DNA from: Gemmatimonadales bacterium
Lineage (GTDB): Bacteria; Gemmatimonadota; Gemmatimonadetes; Gemmatimonadales; GWC2-71-9
DNA length: 64,000 nt
Reading direction: 5' to 3'
NCBI GenBank assembly: GCA_038250675.1
Contig: JBBSCB010000001.1
Location: 20,877-84,876 of the forward strand
The notes beneath the pieces were generated by a model. The model was not told the DNA's origin. It saw only the letters and a list, made by a program, of their open reading frames with translations, and made no database searches. A program made the position numbers and the translations under genes. Of the stretch, positions 7,397-20,744 are shown piece by piece; position 1 is the first letter of the stretch; every line of letters begins with the position of its first letter.

Positions 7397-7879
7397 CTAT
7401 TGCACATCGAACGCGACCGCGCCCTGACCCAGATACTCCGGCGGAATCGGCTCACGCCGCCGCTCCACGTGAAATGCAAGCGCACTGATGCACCATGTGC
7501 CTTGCACCCGGATCAATTGAAAGGCATGTACCGTGCGCCCGGTCAGCGCTTCCGCTGCACCGATGACGCGCACCTCGGTGGTGCTGAACACTTGCGCGAT
7601 GTTGCCGTAGGCGTGCGCGTGGTGCCAGAGCTCCGCGTGCTCCTCGCGGATCCCGGCCGCATGTTTGCCCTCACGCACCGGCGCGCCCAGGTCGAGATAC
7701 TCGGTGATGGAGAGGTCAGCGCGGTCCTCCACGCCGGCGTTGTCAGCCATGACACCCCGGATCCGGGCGTCCGGCAGGAAGAGCCGCGTGATGGCTGCCC
7801 GGTCGCGCGCAGCCGGCGGGGCCGCCCAGGTCAGGCGGAAGAACTCAGCCACTGTCTCATGTGCATCGGTGATCGGCAT
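7397..7879 (-). CDS. NTF2-like (SnoaL/DUF4440-type) protein
   Basis: 160-aa ORF with high GC3. Its size and pattern (TVAEFFRLTW...IAQVFSTTEVRV...HAFQLIRVQGTWCISALAF) fit the NTF2 fold. The call is from memory only. Confidence 0.5.
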   Translation of the reverse strand: MPITDAHETVAEFFRLTWAAPPAARDRAAITRLFLPDARIRGVMADNAGVEDRADLSITEYLDLGAPVREGKHAAGIREEHAELWHHAHAYGNIAQVFSTTEVRVIGAAEALTGRTVHAFQLIRVQGTWCISALAFHVERRREPIPPEYLGQGAVAFDVQ

Positions 7880-12124: not shown

Positions 12125-14352
12125 GCGCTGAACGCCGCCGTGAGCTGCCGCGCCCGTTCCGCGATGTCGGCGAAGCGCGGCAGATCCCGCAGCGGTGCCA
12201 TGAAGGGGCAGTGCTCGGCGATGTATGGATAGGGATGGAACCCCTGCTCCACCGCCTGCTCCAGCAGGTCGAGCGCCCGGTCGGTGTCACCCGCCATCGC
12301 GAACGATTCGGCCAGATGGAACTTGTGGTGCCCATCGAGGCCGGTGACGCCGGCCAGATGCGCGAGCGCGTCGTCCCGGCGCCCGGACAGCGCGTCCACC
12401 AGCGCCAGGATCTGGAGCGTGTACGGCATCTCCGGCACCCGTGCCGCCATCAGCATGGCGTGGGTGCGTGCCTCGTCCACCGACCCCACGAGCGCCAGGT
12501 TGTACGCCAGTGACCAGCGACCGATGATGCTCTCGGGATCCAGCTCCACTCCCGCCGTCGAGCTGGCCACGCCATCGGCCGGATGCCCGGTGAACCAGGT
12601 CGGGATGGCCGTCAGCATCCACGCCAGCGCCGAGAGCGGGTCGCACGCCATGAAGCGCCGCGCGACGTCCTCCGCGGCCTCGTTCTGCCCCGCGCCGATA
12701 TAGCTCACGCCGAGGTGCAGCAGCGCGTCGGCATCGTTGGGTGCCCGGTCCAGGGCCGCGCGGAAGTGGCGGACCGCGTTCGCCAGGTGACCCCGCTCGT
12801 AGCCGATCATCCCCAGGATCGCATGGCCGTACGGCGCTGCCGGCGCCTGTACCAGGAGCGCCCGCGCAACGGCCTCCGCATCGTCCAGTTCCCGCGCCGG
12901 ATGCTGCGCGGTGCCGGAGCGCACCCGGACCACGCTGGCCCAGGCAGCCACCCCCTGCAGCGGCGGCGTGCGCCCCTCGATGGCAATGGCGGCATCGAGA
13001 AACGCCATCCCCCGGTCCACGTCGTAGCGGGTGATCTCCTGGCGGGCCCTCAGGTAGAGCTCGAACGCGCGCACGTTCCGGATCGGACGGTCGGTGAGCC
13101 GCGCGTCCTCCTCGGCGCCGAGCGTCAGATCAAGCGCCTGCACGATGGCGCGCGAGACCCGCTCCTGCACGTCGAACACGTCGTCCATGGTGCCGCTGTA
13201 CTTCTCGCCCCAGAGCTGCGCATCGTTCTGCGTGTCCACCAGTTGGGCGGTGATGCGGAGCGCGTTGCCCGCCTTGCGCACGCTTCCCTCGAGGGCGTAG
13301 CGCACACCCAGCTCCCGCCCGATTGCGCGGACGCCCTTGGTGGTGCCCTTGAGCTGCATGGACGAGGTGCGGGAGATCACCTGCAGCGAGCGGATCGCCG
13401 CCAGATCGCTGATCAGCTCCTCGGTCAGCCCGTCGCTGAAATACTCGTGGTCCGGTTCGGCGCTGAGGTTGGTGAACGGGAGGACCACGATGCCGCGGCG
13501 GTCGAGTGTGGCGGTCGGGGCCTCGGGGGCGGCCAGCGCCTCGGCCAGCTCGCGGCAGGTGGCGAACCGATCGCCCGACGCGGTGGCCATCGCCTTGCGC
13601 ACCACGTCGTCGAGCGCAGCGGTGACCTCGCTGCGGCGGGCCCGGGGCGAGGGCGGCTCGGCGGTCATCCGTCGCGCGAGCATCGCCATCGCCGACCCGG
13701 TGAAGGGCAGCTCGCCGGTGAGGCATTCGAAAAGCATGCAGCCCAGCGCGTAGACGTCGCTCCGGCCGTCGAGTGGCTCCCCGGCCACCTGTTCCGGCGA
13801 GATGTACGCCGGCGTGCCGACCACCTCGCCCACCTGCGTCAGGCGCGACGTCTCGGGCTCGGCGGTCACCCGCGCGATGCCGAAATCCGCCACCATCGCG
13901 TGGCCGGCGCTCAGCAGGATGTTCTCCGGCTTGATGTCGCGATGCACAATGCCGGCGCGGTGGGCGTAGTCGAGCGCGTCGGCCACCTCGCCCATCAGCC
14001 GCAGGGCGTCGCCGATCGACAACCGGCCCTCGCGGGCCAGGCGGGTGCGCAGCGTCTCCCCGTCCACGTACGGCATGATGTAGTAGAGCAGCCCGTCGGA
14101 GGCGCCCGAGTCATGCAGCGGCAGGATGTTGGGGTGCTGCAGGTTGGCCGTCGTCCGGATCTCGCTGAGGAAGCGCTCGGGCCCCACCGCGCTCGCGAGC
14201 GCGGAGTGCAGCACCTTGATGGCGACCTGGCGGTCGTGCCGGAGGTCGGCGGCAAGGTACACGGTGGCCATGCCGCCGGCGCCGAGCTCGCGCACCGGGC
14301 GATAGCGGCCCGCCAGCGCCGCGGTCAGCCGATCCATCGCTTCAGCCGCCAC
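12121..14352 (-). CDS. Ser/Thr protein kinase with TolB-N-like and TPR C-terminal region
   Basis: Hanks motifs are present: GAGGMATVY, VAIKVL, HRDIKPENILL, DFGIA. These are followed by IVVLPFTNLSAEPDHEYFSDGLTEELISDL...RITAQLVD and TPR-like helices. The start is GTG 14352 or ATG 14337. Confidence 0.9.
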   Translation of the reverse strand: MAAEAMDRLTAALAGRYRPVRELGAGGMATVYLAADLRHDRQVAIKVLHSALASAVGPERFLSEIRTTANLQHPNILPLHDSGASDGLLYYIMPYVDGETLRTRLAREGRLSIGDALRLMGEVADALDYAHRAGIVHRDIKPENILLSAGHAMVADFGIARVTAEPETSRLTQVGEVVGTPAYISPEQVAGEPLDGRSDVYALGCMLFECLTGELPFTGSAMAMLARRMTAEPPSPRARRSEVTAALDDVVRKAMATASGDRFATCRELAEALAAPEAPTATLDRRGIVVLPFTNLSAEPDHEYFSDGLTEELISDLAAIRSLQVISRTSSMQLKGTTKGVRAIGRELGVRYALEGSVRKAGNALRITAQLVDTQNDAQLWGEKYSGTMDDVFDVQERVSRAIVQALDLTLGAEEDARLTDRPIRNVRAFELYLRARQEITRYDVDRGMAFLDAAIAIEGRTPPLQGVAAWASVVRVRSGTAQHPARELDDAEAVARALLVQAPAAPYGHAILGMIGYERGHLANAVRHFRAALDRAPNDADALLHLGVSYIGAGQNEAAEDVARRFMACDPLSALAWMLTAIPTWFTGHPADGVASSTAGVELDPESIIGRWSLAYNLALVGSVDEARTHAMLMAARVPEMPYTLQILALVDALSGRRDDALAHLAGVTGLDGHHKFHLAESFAMAGDTDRALDLLEQAVEQGFHPYPYIAEHCPFMAPLRDLPRFADIAERARQLTAAFSA

Positions 14353-15220
14353 GCGACGGACCGGCCGGCGGCAGCGGCGCGCGGGCCACGATCAGCGTGA
14401 CGTTGTCGCTGCCGCCCCGCTCGAGAGCCAGCCCGAGCAGCGTGCCGCAGAGCTGCTCCGCCGACGTCATCGCCGCCGCGTGATCCCGGATCTCGTCGTT
14501 GCTCACGTGCTTGGTCAGGCCATCGGTGGCGAGCAGCAGCACGCACCCGCGGGGAATCTCCATGCGGGTGACCACCGGCATCGCCTCGTCGCCGCCGATC
14601 GCGCTGGCCAGCACGTGGCTGAACGGTGACTGCGCCATGCGGTCCGCCGGCAGGACGCCGTCGTCCACCAGTCCCTGCGCGATCGTCTGATCACGGGTGA
14701 GCTGGGTCAGCTCGCCGTCCCAGTACCGGTAGCAGCGGCTGTCGCCCACTTGCGTCACGTAGAGCCAGGGAAAAACGGCAACCGCGAGCGTGAGCGTCGT
14801 CGCCATCCTGGCCGCCCGGTCCAGCCGGGCCTTGTCGCGGACCGCGGTGTGGGCCTCGCATGCCGCCGCCGTGAGCGCCTGATGGAACTCGGCGTCGCTG
14901 GCGGTCCCGGCCGCATGATACGATCGCAGCGAGGAGACGACGTAGTGCATCGTCGCCTCCAGCGCCAGCCGGCTCGCCTCGGCGCCACTGGTCCCGCCCC
15001 CCACGCCGTCGGCCACCAGCATGAACGTGGCCATCCGCTCGCCGCGGAGCGGCAGCGCGGTCGTGTCGGGCAGGCTGGTGCCGTGCACCACCACCTGGGG
15101 GTGGACGGTACAGAGGAGAAAGTGATCCTGGTTCTCCTTGCGCACGTGACCGATGTGGGTGACGCCAAAGACGTCGAGCTCGGTGTCGAGCGGGCGAATC
15201 CAGTGTTCGTCAGTCGTCAT
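14342..15220 (-). CDS. PP2C-family Ser/Thr phosphatase
   Basis: ATG 15220 is preceded by GGGGGGA. PP2C motifs are present: THIGHVRKENQDHF, LVADGVGG, LLLATDGLT, GGSDNVT. Confidence 0.88.
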   Translation of the reverse strand: MTTDEHWIRPLDTELDVFGVTHIGHVRKENQDHFLLCTVHPQVVVHGTSLPDTTALPLRGERMATFMLVADGVGGGTSGAEASRLALEATMHYVVSSLRSYHAAGTASDAEFHQALTAAACEAHTAVRDKARLDRAARMATTLTLAVAVFPWLYVTQVGDSRCYRYWDGELTQLTRDQTIAQGLVDDGVLPADRMAQSPFSHVLASAIGGDEAMPVVTRMEIPRGCVLLLATDGLTKHVSNDEIRDHAAAMTSAEQLCGTLLGLALERGGSDNVTLIVARAPLPPAGPSRGG

Positions 15221-15242
15221 GACATCCCCCCGGGACCCGGCA

Positions 15243-17912
15243 TCACGGCGCCAGCCGTGCGCGGAGGTCCGCAAACCAGTTGTCCACCTGTACCAGGTGC
15301 GCCTCGTGCAGCGCTGAGAATTGCAGCGGTCCCGCAAGGAGAAAGTGCCCGTCCCGTGTGACGTCGAATCCCTGATGGTAGCCGGTAAACCCAAAGCGTG
15401 ACGCGTCGAACAGCGGGTGAAGATCCGTCACGCTGAAGTCGGGACCGGGCGCGACCGACGCCGCGACCAGCCGGGTGGCGGCGCCGAGGAAGAAGAGCTC
15501 GCGCCCGTCCGGCGACCAGACTGGCGACTCCCCGCCGCCATTGGACACCTGCCACTTCCCCGCGTCGGCGGCGGAAAACGGCCGCACGTAGACCTCGTCG
15601 AGACCAGCCTCATTCGAGACGTACGCCAGCCACCGCCCGTCGGGCGAGACCGCCGGCTGCAGCTCGGCAAAGCGCGTCGTCGCCAGGTTCATCACGGCGG
15701 TGTCGCCGCCGGTCGGCAGCGCCAGGATGTCGCCGTTGCCGGCGGCACCGGTCTCGGTGCGCACCAGAAGCCACCGGCCGTCCGGCGACCAGGCGACCTC
15801 CTGGATCGCGCGGTCGTAGTGCGTGAGCCGCCGCTCGGCCCCGCCCCCGTCCGCGGCCCGCACGAAGACGTCGCCGCCAATGGCACTGTCGCGGATGAAC
15901 GCGATCTCCCGGCCATCCGGCGACCACGCGGGCCGCCGGTCGTGCCCGCTGAACGTCAGGCGGGTGAACGGACCGCGATCGAGCCGCTTGATCCAGATAT
16001 TGAGCCCGGCACCGGGCGTCACCACCCCCACCGCGACGCGGCGCCCATCGGGTGAGCGCGCCAACGAATTGAAGTCGCCGGTCCACGTCGAATCCACCAT
16101 GGCGGCCTGCCCGTCCCGCCCGACGCGATAGATCGTGGCCCCACCGGAAATCGAGCCCGCCGTGGCATACACCAGCACCCCAGACGGCGACCACGCCAGG
16201 TCCACGATGGACTGGGTCCGCGCCACGTCCTCCAGCACCGGCGCCGCCGCGCCATGAATCGCCAGCTTGTCCAGGTCGAACGGAACGATGAGCATCACAC
16301 CGTCGCGGCGGGCATACAGCAGATGGCCCGTCGGCAGATACCAGCCCATCGCGATGTCGTCGAGTAATATCTTCTCGCGCCCGGTCGCCAGGTCCAGTAC
16401 GTGCAGACTCATCGTGGCGCAGCCGGAACCGCAGACCTGGTACAGCACGCCCCGCGCGCGCGGGAGCGGCGTCGGCATCAGCGGTGCCAGCCCGCCGAGC
16501 ACGGTGTCGGGCAGCGCGACGGTGACCGCCCCACCGGATTGGCTCACCCGCCGAAGGCCGAGCAGCTGCGAGTTGGGAAAGACCAGCGTGCCATCGTCCA
16601 GCCAGGCGACGCCGCCGATCTCGGACGCCGAGTCCGCCAGCACAACGCCGGCGCCACCCCCGACCCGGATCTTCCGGAGGCGGCCATTCGCGATGTATGC
16701 CAGCCAGCGGCCGTCGGGAGAGAACGTGGGGTTAGTCGCATGCTCGGTGCCCGGAAGGAGCACCGGATCGGCCGCGTCCCGCCGCTTGACCCAGAGACGG
16801 GAGAGCGAGTCACCCACGAAGACGAGCAGCGATCCGTCGGGCGAGAGTGCGAGCGGGTGCCCATTCGTGAGCGCGGTCTGGAGCCCGGCGCTGTCGCCCA
16901 GCGAGAGGTAGGACCGCATGACCGGACGCACCGCGGCATTCCGCGCGCGGGCCCAGCCCCACACGCCGAGGGCCAGCGCCACGAGCGCCACCGCCGCCGC
17001 GGTCTGGAACCGTCGGCGCCACACGGCGGTCATGGCGTCGGCGCGGACCGTCCCGCCGTGGTGCAGCGCCTGTGTCGGCCCCGCACCGGACAACGCGTCG
17101 GCAAACTGCGCCGCCGTGGCAAACCGGTCCGCCGGCAGCTTCTCCAGCGCGTGCAGCACCGCATCCTCGACGTGCGGCGGGATGCTCCGGCGCTGCGTGG
17201 TGAGCCGGCGCGGGTCTTCGGTCATGACCCGGGCGATGATGGCCTGCGCGGTGGGGCCGGTGAACGGCGGCTCGCCCAGCAGCATCTCGTAGGTCACGCA
17301 GCCCAGCGCGTAGACGTCGCTCCGCGCGCTGATCTCGCGCTCGCCCATCGCCTGCTCAGGGCTCATGTAGTGGGGCGTGCCGAGCGACATGCCGGTCTCG
17401 GTCATCCGGGTGCCGGCGGTGCTCACCGCCAGCGCGATGCCAAAGTCCGCCACCAGCGCGCTGCCGTCGTGCAGCAGGATGTTCTCCGGCTTGATGTCGC
17501 GGTGGATCACGCCGTGGCGGTGGGCGTAGTCGAGCGCACCCGCCACCTCGCGCGCAATCCGCACCGCGTCGTCCACCGGCAGCTGGTGCTCCCGCGTGAT
17601 CCGCTCGCGGAGCGAAACCCCCTCGACGTACGGCATGACGTAGAAGAGGAAGCCGTCCGCCTCGCCAGAATCATGCAGCGGCAGAACGTGCGGGTGCTGG
17701 AGATTGGCGGTGGTCTTGATCTCGGAAAGGAACCGCTCCGCGCCGATCACCGCCGCGAGCTCGGGGCGCAGCACCTTGACCGCCACCCGGCGATCGTGCT
17801 TCAGGTCCTGCGCCAGGTACACCGTGGCCATGCCGCCGGCACCGAGCTCGCCTTCCAGGCGATAGCGGTCAGCCAGCGCCGCCGTGAGGCGCGCGTTCGC
17901 CGGTGCGGTCAT
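15243..17912 (-). CDS. Ser/Thr protein kinase with TM segment and C-terminal PD40/TolB-like beta-propeller
   Basis: Hanks motifs as in 9455-12124, a TM helix (AAAVALVALALGVWGW) and multiple SPDG repeats. The length is identical (889 aa) to the paralogue at 9455-12124. Confidence 0.93.
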   Translation of the reverse strand: MTAPANARLTAALADRYRLEGELGAGGMATVYLAQDLKHDRRVAVKVLRPELAAVIGAERFLSEIKTTANLQHPHVLPLHDSGEADGFLFYVMPYVEGVSLRERITREHQLPVDDAVRIAREVAGALDYAHRHGVIHRDIKPENILLHDGSALVADFGIALAVSTAGTRMTETGMSLGTPHYMSPEQAMGEREISARSDVYALGCVTYEMLLGEPPFTGPTAQAIIARVMTEDPRRLTTQRRSIPPHVEDAVLHALEKLPADRFATAAQFADALSGAGPTQALHHGGTVRADAMTAVWRRRFQTAAAVALVALALGVWGWARARNAAVRPVMRSYLSLGDSAGLQTALTNGHPLALSPDGSLLVFVGDSLSRLWVKRRDAADPVLLPGTEHATNPTFSPDGRWLAYIANGRLRKIRVGGGAGVVLADSASEIGGVAWLDDGTLVFPNSQLLGLRRVSQSGGAVTVALPDTVLGGLAPLMPTPLPRARGVLYQVCGSGCATMSLHVLDLATGREKILLDDIAMGWYLPTGHLLYARRDGVMLIVPFDLDKLAIHGAAAPVLEDVARTQSIVDLAWSPSGVLVYATAGSISGGATIYRVGRDGQAAMVDSTWTGDFNSLARSPDGRRVAVGVVTPGAGLNIWIKRLDRGPFTRLTFSGHDRRPAWSPDGREIAFIRDSAIGGDVFVRAADGGGAERRLTHYDRAIQEVAWSPDGRWLLVRTETGAAGNGDILALPTGGDTAVMNLATTRFAELQPAVSPDGRWLAYVSNEAGLDEVYVRPFSAADAGKWQVSNGGGESPVWSPDGRELFFLGAATRLVAASVAPGPDFSVTDLHPLFDASRFGFTGYHQGFDVTRDGHFLLAGPLQFSALHEAHLVQVDNWFADLRARLAP

Positions 17913-18163
17913 CGGTGCCGTTCCCGCGGCCGGAGGGCGCGCGCAGTGCGAAGCATGGCGCCTCGTGGTGGGCAGGGCAGCGCACCCTGCGATCGCCGGC
18001 GGCGTGTGTGAAGAGAAGTAGTCGGTATGCCCGAATCTACCGCCGGACCGGCACGGCGGCTAATGCGCCGCGGGCAGTCCCCGCACATAGCGGTCGAGCT
18101 CGGCCACGTTCCGCTCCTGCGCCCGGAACGTCCCTTCGGCCCGCATCGCCGGCGATCAGCGCG

Positions 18164-18442
18164 TCACTTGAGTCGCACCAGGTAGCCACCTTCGTTGAGG
18201 TCCTTGCTGTGCTCCGCGACCAGTGGCGCGAGCTCGTCGCGGAGGAGCCGGGCCACCAGCGGCCGCAGCACCGGTCGGCCGGCCGATCCGCGGCCCCGTC
18301 CGGTCACGATGTGCACCACGTCACCGGAACGCGCACCGGCCCGGCCCCGGAGCAGGCGTTCCACCGCGGACCGCGCCATGGCCGCGTCGCATCCGTGGAG
18401 ATCGAGAGTGGTGGCCACCGGCGCGTCGAAGAGGCCGGGCAC
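18164..18442 (-). CDS. minimal Smr-domain protein (putative nuclease)
   Basis: 92-aa ORF with a GTG start 4 nt after the upstream stop. Smr signature reads LDLHG...A...V..LL...VVHIVTGRGRGS...L...V...L...GGYLVRL. Confidence 0.8.
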   Translation of the reverse strand: MPGLFDAPVATTLDLHGCDAAMARSAVERLLRGRAGARSGDVVHIVTGRGRGSAGRPVLRPLVARLLRDELAPLVAEHSKDLNEGGYLVRLK

Positions 18443-18446
18443 CGGA

Positions 18447-19022
18447 TCAGTCGCGCCGGTCGGCGTAGAGCGCGACCCGCAGCCGGGCCCGGTCGCGCAC
18501 GCGCGGGTCCGGCCATGCCGCGGCGTACCGTCGGATCTCGGACGCCACCCATATCGGCAGCGCGCGCAGCGGGGTGCCCGCCAGCAGCGCCTCGTCGATC
18601 AGCCGGTCGGGCACCAGGTCGGCCAGGGCGAACAGATCGGCCCGGCGCTCTTCGAGCGTCCCGTAGTCGAGAATGCTCGACATGAACCGGACCTCACTCT
18701 CCTGCCCCACGTCGAGCTCGCCAGCGGCGAGGTGGGCCAGCCCGTGGCGGAGTGCCAGGCGACGGAACCCGGCCGCGATGCGGCGATTGACCACGATCGC
18801 CGGCGGCCCGAAGTAGCCGGGCACGCCGATCTCCTGCGTGTTGGCTCCCAGCTCCTCCTGCACGATCATCCCGCCCATCTGGCGAGCCAGAATGTCGAGC
18901 GTGATGTCGCTGATCGGGCTCCACGTGTCGTCGGCGTAGGCCAGGCCGGACCGCTCGCGCACGCGCGCCAGCAGCAGGCGGGTCGACACCAGGACCTGCC
19001 GGTCCTCAGCCGAATTCGCCAC
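18447..19022 (-). CDS. ImmA/IrrE (COG2856, M78)-like protein with degenerate zinc motif
   Basis: The pattern ...PAIVVNRRIAAGFRRLALRHGLAHLAAGEL matches the family block I.IN....R.RF.LAHELGH. However, HExxH reads HGLAH, with Glu replaced by Gly. It overlaps the XRE gene by 17 nt (GTG 19022). Confidence 0.65.
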   Translation of the reverse strand: MANSAEDRQVLVSTRLLLARVRERSGLAYADDTWSPISDITLDILARQMGGMIVQEELGANTQEIGVPGYFGPPAIVVNRRIAAGFRRLALRHGLAHLAAGELDVGQESEVRFMSSILDYGTLEERRADLFALADLVPDRLIDEALLAGTPLRALPIWVASEIRRYAAAWPDPRVRDRARLRVALYADRRD

Positions 19023-19476
19023 CGATCACCTCGTTGTGGATCCGCGTGAGCCAGGTCGGTACCGGCCGCCCGGCCAGCTCGGCCGACCGCATCGCGGCTC
19101 GGCAGACGGCGAGCTGGTTGATGCGATGCTCCTCGGCCGCGAACAGATCGGGATCACCCACCATCGCCCGGGTGGTGCGCTCGATGTTGCGGAGGAAGGC
19201 GATGAACTGCTGCTCGGCAAAGGTCGGGTCGCCAAAGAGCCAGCCGTCCGGCGGGCCAGCCGCACCCGGCGCACCGTTAGCCGCGGGCGCACCCGGAGCC
19301 GGCCGACCAGTGGCCTCCGCCAGTCGGCGCAGCGTCCACTCGTTGGCATCGGTCTTTTCATGCAGCAGGCGCCAGACAGTCTCACGCGCCACACCGGACC
19401 TGGCGGCGAGGGTGCTCTGATTGAGCCCGGCCTCGTCCATCGCGCGCCGGAGCCAGCGCGAGACCGACGAACGCAT
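19006..19476 (-). CDS. XRE-family HTH transcriptional regulator with C-terminal helical domain
   Basis: HTH_3 pattern WLRRAMDEAGLNQSTLAARSGVARETVWRLLHEKTD, then a Pro/Ala linker (GRPAPGAPAANGAPGAAGPPDG) and about 80 aa of C-terminal domain. Confidence 0.8.
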   Translation of the reverse strand: MRSSVSRWLRRAMDEAGLNQSTLAARSGVARETVWRLLHEKTDANEWTLRRLAEATGRPAPGAPAANGAPGAAGPPDGWLFGDPTFAEQQFIAFLRNIERTTRAMVGDPDLFAAEEHRINQLAVCRAAMRSAELAGRPVPTWLTRIHNEVIGGEFG

Positions 19477-19520
19477 ACTATTGGCAGTTAATGACTTGGT
19501 AGCAGTCACACTCCGGTTCC

Positions 19521-19587
19521 TTGACAGCGGTAGTGGCACGTGCCATACTATGTCGAACGCGTAATAACGGTAATGCCACATGCCACA
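19521..19587 (+). promoter_or_regulatory. sigma70-like promoter (TTGACA-N17-CATACT) overlapped by palindromic operator, plus tandem TGCCACA half-sites
   Basis: TTGACA lies at 19521-19526 and CATACT at 19544-19549. The perfect palindrome GGCACGTGCC at 19535-19544 extends to TAGTGGCAC/GTGCCAtACTA. TGCCACA occurs twice, at 19574-19587. The stretch is AT-richer: 23 of 50 bases are G/C at 19541-19590. Confidence 0.5.
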
Positions 19588-19605
19588 TCTGTCGAGGGCC
19601 TCATC

Positions 19606-19872
19606 ATGAGTTCGGTGCCGGCTGATACCGCCGCCTGGGCCGCGCTCGCTGTCTCGGTGCTCGGGGTGCTGCCGCGGATCATCGGCGTGCTCACCCGCTC
19701 GCGCTCGGCGGCCCGCCGCTCCGACCGCGCGCGCTTCGAGACGCTGTACGATACCCAGGACCGGCTGATCAGCCGGCTCGAGTCCCGCTGCGACGAGTTG
19801 GAGCGCCACCTCGGCCGGCTCGGCGCCGAGTCAGAACTGCGCCGTCAGACAGTTTCGAAGACGATCCGGTAA
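19606..19872 (+). CDS. small membrane-anchored coiled-coil protein
   Basis: ATG 19606 is preceded by GAGGG. The 88-aa product has high GC3, one TM helix (AAWAALAVSVLGVLPRIIGVL) and a charged heptad-like tail (RFETLYDTQDRLISRLESRCDELERHLGRL). Its 3' end overlaps the convergent methyltransferase gene by 28 nt. Confidence 0.5.
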   Translation: MSSVPADTAAWAALAVSVLGVLPRIIGVLTRSRSAARRSDRARFETLYDTQDRLISRLESRCDELERHLGRLGAESELRRQTVSKTIR

Positions 19873-20744
19873 TGGTCCATCAGGAGCCGCTCGAAGCAGA
19901 TCGAGTTGGGACTGATCCCCGAGGTGAACGCCTGGCGGAAGGCCCGGCTCGCGAGGTAGCGTGGCACCAGCGAGAGTTTGACACCAAGCTTGGCCACGCT
20001 GAACTCGCCAAAGCGACGACGCCATTGGCGGATCGTCTCCACATAGTCGAGCCGCCCGCTGCTGCTCGACATCACCCGGAAGTACGGCGCGGCGCACCGC
20101 ACCAGCTGCTCTTGGCCGTACGGCAGCCACGACCCGGGAAACTGCGCCTCCATCAGCGCCATGACATGCGCGTCCGACCCGAACGGCGCGTCGATGTCGA
20201 GGCGGGCGGGCGGCAGCGCATTGGGGCCGAAGACCATCGTCTGGAGATAGAAGCGGCCGCCGGCCGGCAGCAGGTCCCGCACCGAGCGGAAGAAATCCCC
20301 GTAGACCCGATCCTGCCGCCCCGCTACGTACTCCTGCTTGGAGCAGAAGTGCTCGAACGCGCCCAGACTCACCGCGGCGTCGAACGATCCGAAGTCATCC
20401 GGCGTGACCCGCCGCGCATCGTGCAGGTGCGCGTCGAGCCCGTTCCGGCGGCACGCCGCGGCCTGCCCGCGCGAGAGCGTCACGCCGGTACCGGCCGCGC
20501 CGATCTCGCGCGCATAATTGAGAAACGGCCCCCATCCGCAACCCAGGTCGATCACGCTCGTCCCCGGCCCGATACCGAGACTCTCGCCGATGAACTCATG
20601 CTTGCGGTGCTGGGCCTCCTCGAGCGTCAGCGAGAAGTCACCGTCATACTTGGCGCCGCTGAAGTCCGCCATCTCGCCCAGACTCAGGCGGAAGAGGCGA
20701 TCGATCTGCGTGTAGGTAAAATCCAGGTCTTCGGCTACCGCCAT
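19845..20744 (-). CDS. class I SAM-dependent methyltransferase, cyclopropane-fatty-acyl-phospholipid synthase (CMAS) family
   Basis: SAM motif VIDLGCGWGPF, then GVTLS...Q, SLGAFEHF and GGRFYLQTM, which is typical of the CMAS family. 299 aa. Confidence 0.8.
   Translation of the reverse strand: MAVAEDLDFTYTQIDRLFRLSLGEMADFSGAKYDGDFSLTLEEAQHRKHEFIGESLGIGPGTSVIDLGCGWGPFLNYAREIGAAGTGVTLSRGQAAACRRNGLDAHLHDARRVTPDDFGSFDAAVSLGAFEHFCSKQEYVAGRQDRVYGDFFRSVRDLLPAGGRFYLQTMVFGPNALPPARLDIDAPFGSDAHVMALMEAQFPGSWLPYGQEQLVRCAAPYFRVMSSSSGRLDYVETIRQWRRRFGEFSVAKLGVKLSLVPRYLASRAFRQAFTSGISPNSICFERLLMDHYRIVFETV

Follow-up and report, generated by a model that had tools for sequence, protein, structure and literature searches.

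Introduction

Pairs formed by an XRE-family repressor and a COG2856 (ImmA/IrrE-like) partner count among the most common switches in stress response, phages and defence. Such pairs are widespread, and as of 2019 protease activity of the COG2856 member had been shown for two of them only (PMC6868357). Cleavage of ImmR and of DdrO falls in the loop that separates their last two helices, and Rir inhibits Crh without cleavage (PMC6868357). In this study, we describe a pair of this kind in a stretch of 64,000 nucleotides (nt) from a Gemmatimonadales bacterium (GenBank assembly GCA_038250675.1, contig JBBSCB010000001.1, positions 20,877 to 84,876; hereafter the window). The pair stands next to a divergent gene for a small transmembrane (TM) protein and is followed, on its own strand, by a gene for a stand-alone Smr domain. 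Regulatory pairs of this type are known, but the active site seen here is an unusual variant, and the likely target is an uncharacterised small membrane protein. We consider it reasonably probable that the locus holds a three-gene switch of phage descent, in which the XRE protein represses the TM gene through two operators (O1 and O2) and the ImmA-like partner relieves this repression, likely without cleavage, the Smr gene being unrelated.

Comparison with described systems

As in ImmR/ImmA of ICEBs1 from Bacillus subtilis and in the phage cI-like/ImmA-like modules, an XRE gene is followed here by a small single-domain COG2856 gene, and a divergent promoter with operators controls, in those systems, the other genes of the element. 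More distant members of the window's family lie in phage-like regions, and the ICEBs1 regulator structure 7T8I is among the XRE profile matches. Unlike ImmA, the window protein reads HGLAH in place of HExxH. The XRE C-terminal domain resembles no known structure to a detectable degree, and in the window the module is not embedded in a mobile element and has as its sole divergent gene one for a small membrane protein.

The IrrE (PprI) protein of Deinococcus provides the best structural matches in the PDB, and its target DdrO likewise has a helix-turn-helix (HTH) domain, a linker and a helical C-terminal domain, the three helices of the window XRE protein being predicted at low confidence. IrrE differs in having HExxH, a C-terminal GAF-like domain and a DNA-repair regulon with the RDRM (radiation/desiccation response) motif, whereas the window protein has 191 amino acids (aa) and no extra domain. 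A wider regulon was not apparent in the window either, where an operator search returned the two local sites and a single match with one mismatch at 7398, consistent with chance. CapH/CapP of CBASS (cyclic oligonucleotide-based antiphage signalling systems) and other defence operons also pairs XRE and M78 proteins divergently from the controlled operon, and CapP (7T5T) is a top fold match. It differs in that the gene controlled in the window would be a single small membrane protein without PADLOC match, and in that the catalytic Glu is absent from the window protein.

For a non-proteolytic HGxxH protein, the best functional precedent by analogy would be Crh/Rir of Streptococcus thermophilus phage TP-J34, in which the COG2856 partner is reported to inactivate the XRE protein by binding, with no cleavage (PMC6868357). 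Rir, unlike the window protein, keeps HExxH and is phage-borne, and there is no close sequence relationship between the two.

The Smr protein of the window shares the LDLHG and TGRG motifs with SmrA/SmrB of E. coli and the MutS2 C-terminal domain. It differs in its short length (92 aa, without N-terminal extension), in its NCBIfam SmrA score (15.7 bits against a cut-off of 180) and in having relatives embedded in a sugar-salvage cluster. The locus also differs from the three-component XRE-COG2856-toxin cassettes (Makarova et al., 2009), since the third gene does not co-occur with the pair and the downstream gene varies.

A conserved module of three genes and a divergent promoter

From sequence comparison, the conserved unit is a Gemmatimonadota module made up of the TM gene, a divergent promoter with two 14-bp candidate operators, the XRE gene and the ImmA-like gene (Table 1). 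Loci are labelled L### and homologous proteins P#### below, and some of the loci found from the ImmA-like protein (ImmA-side loci) duplicate one another. There were 57 homologues of the ImmA-like protein at E≤1e-3, and the genome records found for them (n=4) were metagenome-assembled genomes of Gemmatimonadetes, Gemmatimonadales and Longimicrobium. The XRE homologue adjoins the ImmA-like gene in all close loci, and the 17-nt overlap of XRE stop and ImmA-like start (19006-19022 in the window) recurs in L026, L028, L030, L031, L032 and L033. The open reading frame (ORF) coordinates bear out the layout given in the initial annotation, namely the 17-nt overlap, a 4-nt gap between the ImmA-like stop and the GTG start of Smr, a 92-aa Smr protein and a divergent TM/coiled-coil ORF. 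Translational coupling had been proposed for all three minus-strand genes; the conserved overlap speaks for it in the XRE/ImmA-like pair, but Smr is not part of the conserved unit.

Table 1. Genes and regulatory sites of the locus, numbered from the first letter of the window.
Feature	Position	Strand	Remarks
Smr-domain gene	18164..18442	−	92 aa
ImmA/IrrE-like (COG2856, M78-fold) gene	18447..19022	−	191 aa
XRE repressor gene	19006..19509	−	167 aa with probable GTG start; the ORF list gave 19006-19476
Sigma-70-like promoter TTGACA-17-CATACT	19521..19549	+	for the small TM gene
Candidate operator O1	19534..19547		TATGGCACGTGCCA on minus strand; in promoter spacer, touching −10
Candidate operator O2	19574..19587		TGTGGCATGTGGCA on minus strand; predicted 5′ leader of TM gene
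Small TM/coiled-coil gene	19606..19872	+	88 aa

The divergent TM gene was found in L005-7 and L031, with a decayed copy in L028/L029. These last two loci (GCA_038321865.1) have the ImmA-like gene cut to 153 aa and the TM ORF interrupted, with the XRE gene and both operators intact. The TM protein combines a TM helix at the N-terminus with a basic stretch and a coiled coil. Its homologues P0082-P0084 are 62-65% identical on alignment, the copies of L005 and L031 occupy the same divergent position as in the window, and all of these share 23 invariant columns over the TM helix, the LTRSR stretch and ARFExLY...LIxRL. Judging from this alignment, the small TM ORF is a real gene; its conservation, together with the position of the operators, points to it, and not to the downstream gene, as the regulated partner. 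No family in Pfam, NCBIfam, PADLOC or PHROG matched the protein. The C-terminal tail is not conserved among homologues, and the 3′ end of the ORF overlaps by 28 bp (19845-19872) that of a convergent CMAS-like methyltransferase gene (19845-20744, minus strand).

Members of the family at 48-68% identity adjoin series of small genes that lie on one strand, are divergently transcribed and have phage-type matches, including PHROG matches among the neighbours of L026, an HNH endonuclease (E 3e-14) and a weak Mu Gam match near L030, and Gp49/HTH and PIN genes on the contig of P0013. Two more distant relatives (L039/L040) are on IMG/VR viral contigs. In our interpretation, the module derives from immunity regions of prophages or mobile elements, and the window copy stands alone among chromosomal genes, intact and fully adapted in composition. 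At L026/L027 an identical ImmA-like protein (P0007) occurs on 13 contigs beside a divergent operon made up of seven small unknown genes. This has the look of a prophage or mobile element that is widespread in Gemmatimonadota and whose operators (CCGTA-type repeats) are of another kind.

Promoter and candidate operators between the divergent genes

The TTGACA-N17-CATACT promoter facing the TM ORF, recognised in the initial annotation, is the sole sigma-70-like match in 2.3 kb (mean in shuffles 0.1). Its −35 element overlaps, on the opposite strand, the Shine-Dalgarno sequence of the XRE gene (TGTCAAGGAA, 19526 to 19517). O2 is the same 14-mer as O1, placed 40 bp away and in register. What had been described as two tandem TGCCACA is present in the sequence but is really this second operator copy, 19574-19587. 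The spacers of L028, L005 and L032 align with that of the window and keep both operators, the −35, the 17-bp spacing, the −10 and the Shine-Dalgarno sequence; also kept in these three loci is the TGTCAAGGAG block, which serves one gene as −35 and the other as Shine-Dalgarno sequence. Orthologous O1 sites read TATGGCATGTGCAA, TATGGCAGATGCAA and TATTGCACATGCAA. Across the four loci, the non-coding core (58-71% identical) is conserved to nearly the same degree as the XRE coding DNA (67-71%).

O1 contains the perfect 12-bp palindrome TGGCACGTGCCA at 19534-19545. The palindrome had been singled out before; it does lie in the promoter but by itself is not rare (55 perfect 12-bp palindromes in the window vs ~36 in shuffles), so it was rejected as stand-alone operator evidence, perfect 12-mers being common in this GC-rich DNA. 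The operator assignment follows from the duplication, the place in the promoter spacer and the conservation at orthologous loci, and not from the palindrome alone.

Two further short sequences were seen here. ACGCGT (19557-19562), between O1 and O2, is invariant in the four aligned spacers (window, L028, L005, L032) and may belong to the promoter of XRE or form a further binding site. The 8-mer CATACTAT occurs at 19544-19551, at the −10 beside O1, and again at 19474-19481 in the XRE coding region over the internal ATG; this repeat may be due to chance.

The XRE repressor

The XRE protein scores 23.6 bits against Pfam HTH_3 (cut-off 23). Its family profile matches the 434 repressor, P22 C2, the ICEBs1 Xre-family regulator (7T8I) and the N-terminal domain of DdrO in the PDB, whereas the single sequence gives a weak match to the 434 repressor alone. 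In PADLOC the HTH region alone matches, weakly, mad1 and RmrA (E ~1e-3 to 2e-2). The architecture is that of an N-terminal HTH, a Pro/Ala-rich linker and a conserved helical C-terminal domain of ~80 aa.

The reading frame is open upstream of ATG 19476, and a GTG at 19509 is preceded by an AAGGA Shine-Dalgarno sequence 8 nt away. The 11 extra residues (TATKSLTANS...) align with homologue N-termini (MTKTLTDRGL, MMATKSLADKGL, MSKTINNKNL). Based on the Shine-Dalgarno sequence and the conserved N-terminal peptide, we place the start at the GTG, which is most likely the true one, with ATG 19476 an internal Met. Thus, of the gene first described at 19476-19006, the XRE assignment, the Pro/Ala linker and the C-terminal domain are retained but the start moves, and the spacer to the TM gene shrinks from the 129 bp given before to 96 bp.

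The C-terminal domain (GWLFGDP...RNIERTTRAMVG.PDLF...AELAGRPVP.WL) is conserved better than the HTH, and a family profile search found no sequence relative of it in the PDB. The single-sequence AlphaFold2 (AF2) model is poor (predicted local distance difference test, pLDDT, 50) and was used for secondary structure only. It predicts, at low confidence, three C-terminal helices, with the near-invariant AELAGRPVP.WL in the loop preceding the last helix; that this loop corresponds to the ImmR/DdrO cleavage loop is only a lead.

A clade-wide Glu-to-Gly substitution in the ImmA-like partner

Against Pfam Peptidase_M78 (PF06114), the ImmA-like protein of the window reaches 15.7 bits (gathering cut-off 22). 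The domain is matched by 19 of the 24 aligned close family members at E≤0.01 (best E 6.4e-9). An AF2 model built from the alignment of these 24 members is confident (pLDDT 89.6, predicted TM-score 0.88). Foldseek comparison of the model with the PDB retrieved IrrE (3DTI/3DTE), PprI (8SLN/8SLM), CapP (7T5T) and the M. tuberculosis regulator 6D2S/6CZ6 at a probability of at least 0.97, with the top matches (IrrE, PprI, CapP) at probability 1.0, E 7e-3 and a TM-score of ~0.5; in BFVD, phage ‘IrrE protein’ models lead (E 3e-4 to 9e-4). Together, the family matches, the model and the IrrE/PprI/CapP and phage IrrE fold matches support a COG2856/M78 fold. The three initial domain assignments hold, HTH_3 and Smr by Pfam scores above cut-off and Peptidase_M78 by way of family and fold.

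The active-site motif is H93-G94-L-A-H97, and the third metal ligand, the Glu of the E-x-x-A-[DN]-x-F-A helix, is present as E125 (EERRADLFA). Among the homologues H93, H97 and E125 are invariant and G94 nearly so. A profile search of 1.84 billion representative proteins returned 327 matches, and of the 203 rows aligned for the motif tally 81 read HGxxH and 74 HExxH, the remainder being fragments or degenerate forms, with E125 kept almost throughout. The window's clade reads LRHGLAHLVAG...EERRADLFA, and a sister clade from Longimicrobium and soil-metagenome loci (34-38% identical) has LRHELAHVLAG...ERVADLFA in the same sequence context. Given the clade-wide HGxxH and the HELAH of the sister clade, the Glu-to-Gly change is an old, clade-fixed substitution in an otherwise intact site and not decay of the window gene. 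The loss of the catalytic Glu reported earlier is thereby confirmed, with the correction that it is no private lesion of this copy. Peculiar to the HG clade are an RFMSS block and a Glu at position 124, beside the ligand E125.

Active sites vary in more remote relatives as well. The L021 relative has HQVAH, and P0132, P0138-P0140, P0147, P0148, P0150 and P0174 (~300-510 aa, with the domain C-terminal) have RALAH, VALAH, LALAH or AALAH, often with the third ligand missing too. The degenerate sites in these alignments suggest repeated loss of catalysis within the family. No paper on HGxxH M78 pseudo-proteases was found in the literature searched, coverage of which is incomplete.

Smr belongs to a different genomic context

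The Smr protein scores 35 bits against Pfam Smr (PF01713; cut-off 25.7) and has 22 homologues of 91-105 aa that are 58-86% identical. The initial annotation had proposed, as a working hypothesis, that Smr is the effector of a cassette with XRE and an apparently inactive protease. This is contradicted by the comparison across genomes, in which the three genes are never co-located in the related genomes examined, an outcome that the annotation had itself named as refuting the idea. Smr is absent from all 36 ImmA-side loci, 31 of them with at least 300 nt downstream, by tblastn and by a hidden Markov model of 23 Smr homologues run on six-frame translations. The gene 3′ of the ImmA-like gene varies in nearly every locus (among others a 184-aa unknown, a 157-aa unknown and a Big_1 protein). 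Even the closest relatives, with ImmA-like proteins 77-88% identical, carry different genes at this place: DUF2214 in L032, an abhydrolase in L033, a 108-aa unknown in L005/L031 and VIT1 in L028.

Orthologues of Smr (91-92 aa, 72-83% identical) follow a GHMP (GalK-like) kinase in the four loci read, all four of them, with kinase-Smr gaps of −4 (a 4-nt overlap), +1, +21 and +4 nt in L035, L036, L037 and L038. In L035 and L036 Smr directly precedes a glycoside hydrolase family 20 (GH20) hexosaminidase, in L037 a gene of 407 aa separates the two, and in L038 the gene after Smr runs off the contig and has no family assignment. None of these four loci has the XRE/ImmA pair beside Smr. In GCA_038321865.1 the pair (L028) and Smr (L035) are on different contigs, and L037 comes from one and the same sequencing run as L033. 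The DNA of the window Smr gene and that of its orthologues are homologous from within a few bases of the start codon up to the stop codon; the GHMP kinase/GH20 sugar cluster was searched for within the window and not found. We infer that Smr is an unrelated, lineage-conserved housekeeping-type gene, displaced from the GHMP kinase-Smr-GH20 cluster and set 4 nt after the ImmA-like gene by local rearrangement. It is probably co-transcribed with the pair in the window, as with the kinase at its usual site, and probably not a functional component of the module; no observation points to its needing or using the switch. Removing this false lead is useful in itself: a Smr effector governed by a dead protease is not a conserved system, and a tight 4-nt same-strand junction can come from local rearrangement.

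The full order of the Smr cluster is SSF transporter, NTP-transferase, GHMP/GalK-like kinase, Smr, GH20 hexosaminidase and fucosidase. A Smr domain amid sugar-salvage genes is an odd association. The source annotation appears to start Smr at an internal Met, giving 71 aa (P0066); all orthologues have 91-92 aa and align from GTG 18442, and the longer form is probably correct by this alignment. No paper linking a Smr domain to XRE/ImmA pairs was found in the literature searched, again with incomplete coverage.

Discussion

From position and analogy, XRE dimers would bind O1, in the spacer of the TM promoter, and O2, in the TM leader. Given these positions, binding would shut off the TM gene, and the pair's own operon would probably be autoregulated. 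On a signal, the ImmA-like partner would act on the conserved C-terminal domain of the XRE protein and relieve repression, as ImmA does with ImmR, IrrE with DdrO and CapP with CapH. The clade-wide Gly in place of the catalytic Glu, with the three metal ligands kept, suggests that the partner acts most likely by binding, as a metal-dependent anti-repressor or sensor in the manner of Rir on Crh, and not by normal zincin catalysis. A more specific proposal goes further: the HGxxH lineage would be a catalytically dead, metal-binding branch of COG2856, derived from the HExxH sister clade by one change. Its members would act on an XRE C-terminal domain that co-evolves with them, as anti-repressors of the binding type or as metal/redox sensors, and would switch on a small membrane protein, an effector of toxin, holin or stress type. 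We advance it tentatively, giving it rather less than an even chance.

Several points weigh against the three-gene switch as set out here. The window's ImmA-like protein itself stays under the M78 cut-off, and the family profile found no M78 chain among PDB sequences, its sole match being noise (calmodulin, E 0.13). The promoter of the XRE operon has no confident identification. That XRE binds the DNA, that a signal exists and that the ImmA-like protein acts on XRE is drawn from position and analogy. With the 4-nt junction, Smr is probably expressed from the operon of the pair, and it may have acquired a role locally; the closest Smr homologues (84-86% identical; P0058, P0059) lie on contigs of ~1 kb, outside the four contexts read. 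Finally, the loss of the Glu is no proof of lost proteolysis. E124 is enriched in the HG clade (59/76 vs 13/74 in the HE clade) and might serve as a substitute.

This last point leads to an alternative in which the module is unchanged but its ImmA-like member has kept metalloprotease activity and cleaves XRE, the general base coming from another residue, such as E124 or E102, or from the substrate. Invariance of all three metal ligands and the specific enrichment of E124 in the HG clade would fit it, as would the cutting of ImmR and DdrO at the corresponding loop (PMC6868357), the XRE model being of low confidence. In zincins the Glu of HExxH is the general base, a part that Gly cannot take over. 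Relatives with HQxxH, HAxxH or without the first His also suggest repeated catalytic loss, and we regard an active protease as unlikely, though worth keeping in mind. The alternative that the module is a functionless, decaying remnant of a prophage immunity region is very improbable. It would account for a module alone among chromosomal genes, with genomic GC and without integrase, tRNA or other phage gene in the window, and it recalls L028/L029 with their truncated ImmA-like protein (153 aa) and interrupted TM ORF. Yet in the window all three module ORFs are intact, residues are strongly conserved across 35-83% identity, and so are the non-coding operators, the promoter and the 17-nt overlap.

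Least probable of all, with hardly any weight left, is a stress- or phage-triggered XRE/pseudo-protease switch with a Smr nuclease as the effector, in a toxin-antitoxin-like or defence cassette. The three genes do share a strand, the gap is of 4 nt and neither a promoter nor a terminator match separates them, and COG2856/XRE pairs often occur in predicted operons with toxin genes (PMC6868357, citing Makarova et al., 2009). The evidence given above runs the other way, as Smr is missing from all 36 related loci, its orthologues sit in the GHMP kinase-Smr-GH20 context without the pair, and pair and Smr are on separate contigs in GCA_038321865.1. The Smr, ImmA-like and TM proteins have no PADLOC matches, and the operators in the divergent promoter point to the TM gene as the controlled gene. 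We retain the three-gene switch. Its HG clade, with Gly fixed at the catalytic position and the ligands, partner, overlap and operators kept, is a good place to ask about function without proteolysis. If the binding-type reading is true, the HG and HE sister clades would form a clean natural pair that separates cleavage-dependent from cleavage-independent derepression.

Genomic setting of the window copy

The genes flanking the module in the window are ordinary chromosomal genes. The Smr side has a Ser/Thr kinase, which carries a long C-terminal extension, and a PP2C phosphatase; the other side has the CMAS-like methyltransferase, a TetR regulator and a resistance-nodulation-division (RND) pump. 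GC content of the coding parts is ~70%, as in the genome, and falls to 59% in the divergent spacer alone. The window contains no tRNA, and no integrase or further phage gene was seen in it; phage or mobile-element genes flank the pair only in the more distant relatives. There are no paralogues of the genes of the locus within the window, an Rfam scan of 17500-20300 gave no match, and scans of the Smr, ImmA-like and TM proteins with PADLOC, NCBIfam and PHROG were uninformative. The interval between Smr and the kinase lacks a terminator-like site. The kinase gene (14342-17912, minus strand) encodes 889 aa with a long C-terminal repeat region that is TolB/beta-propeller-like by eye, and it and the PP2C gene that comes next lie downstream of Smr on the same strand.

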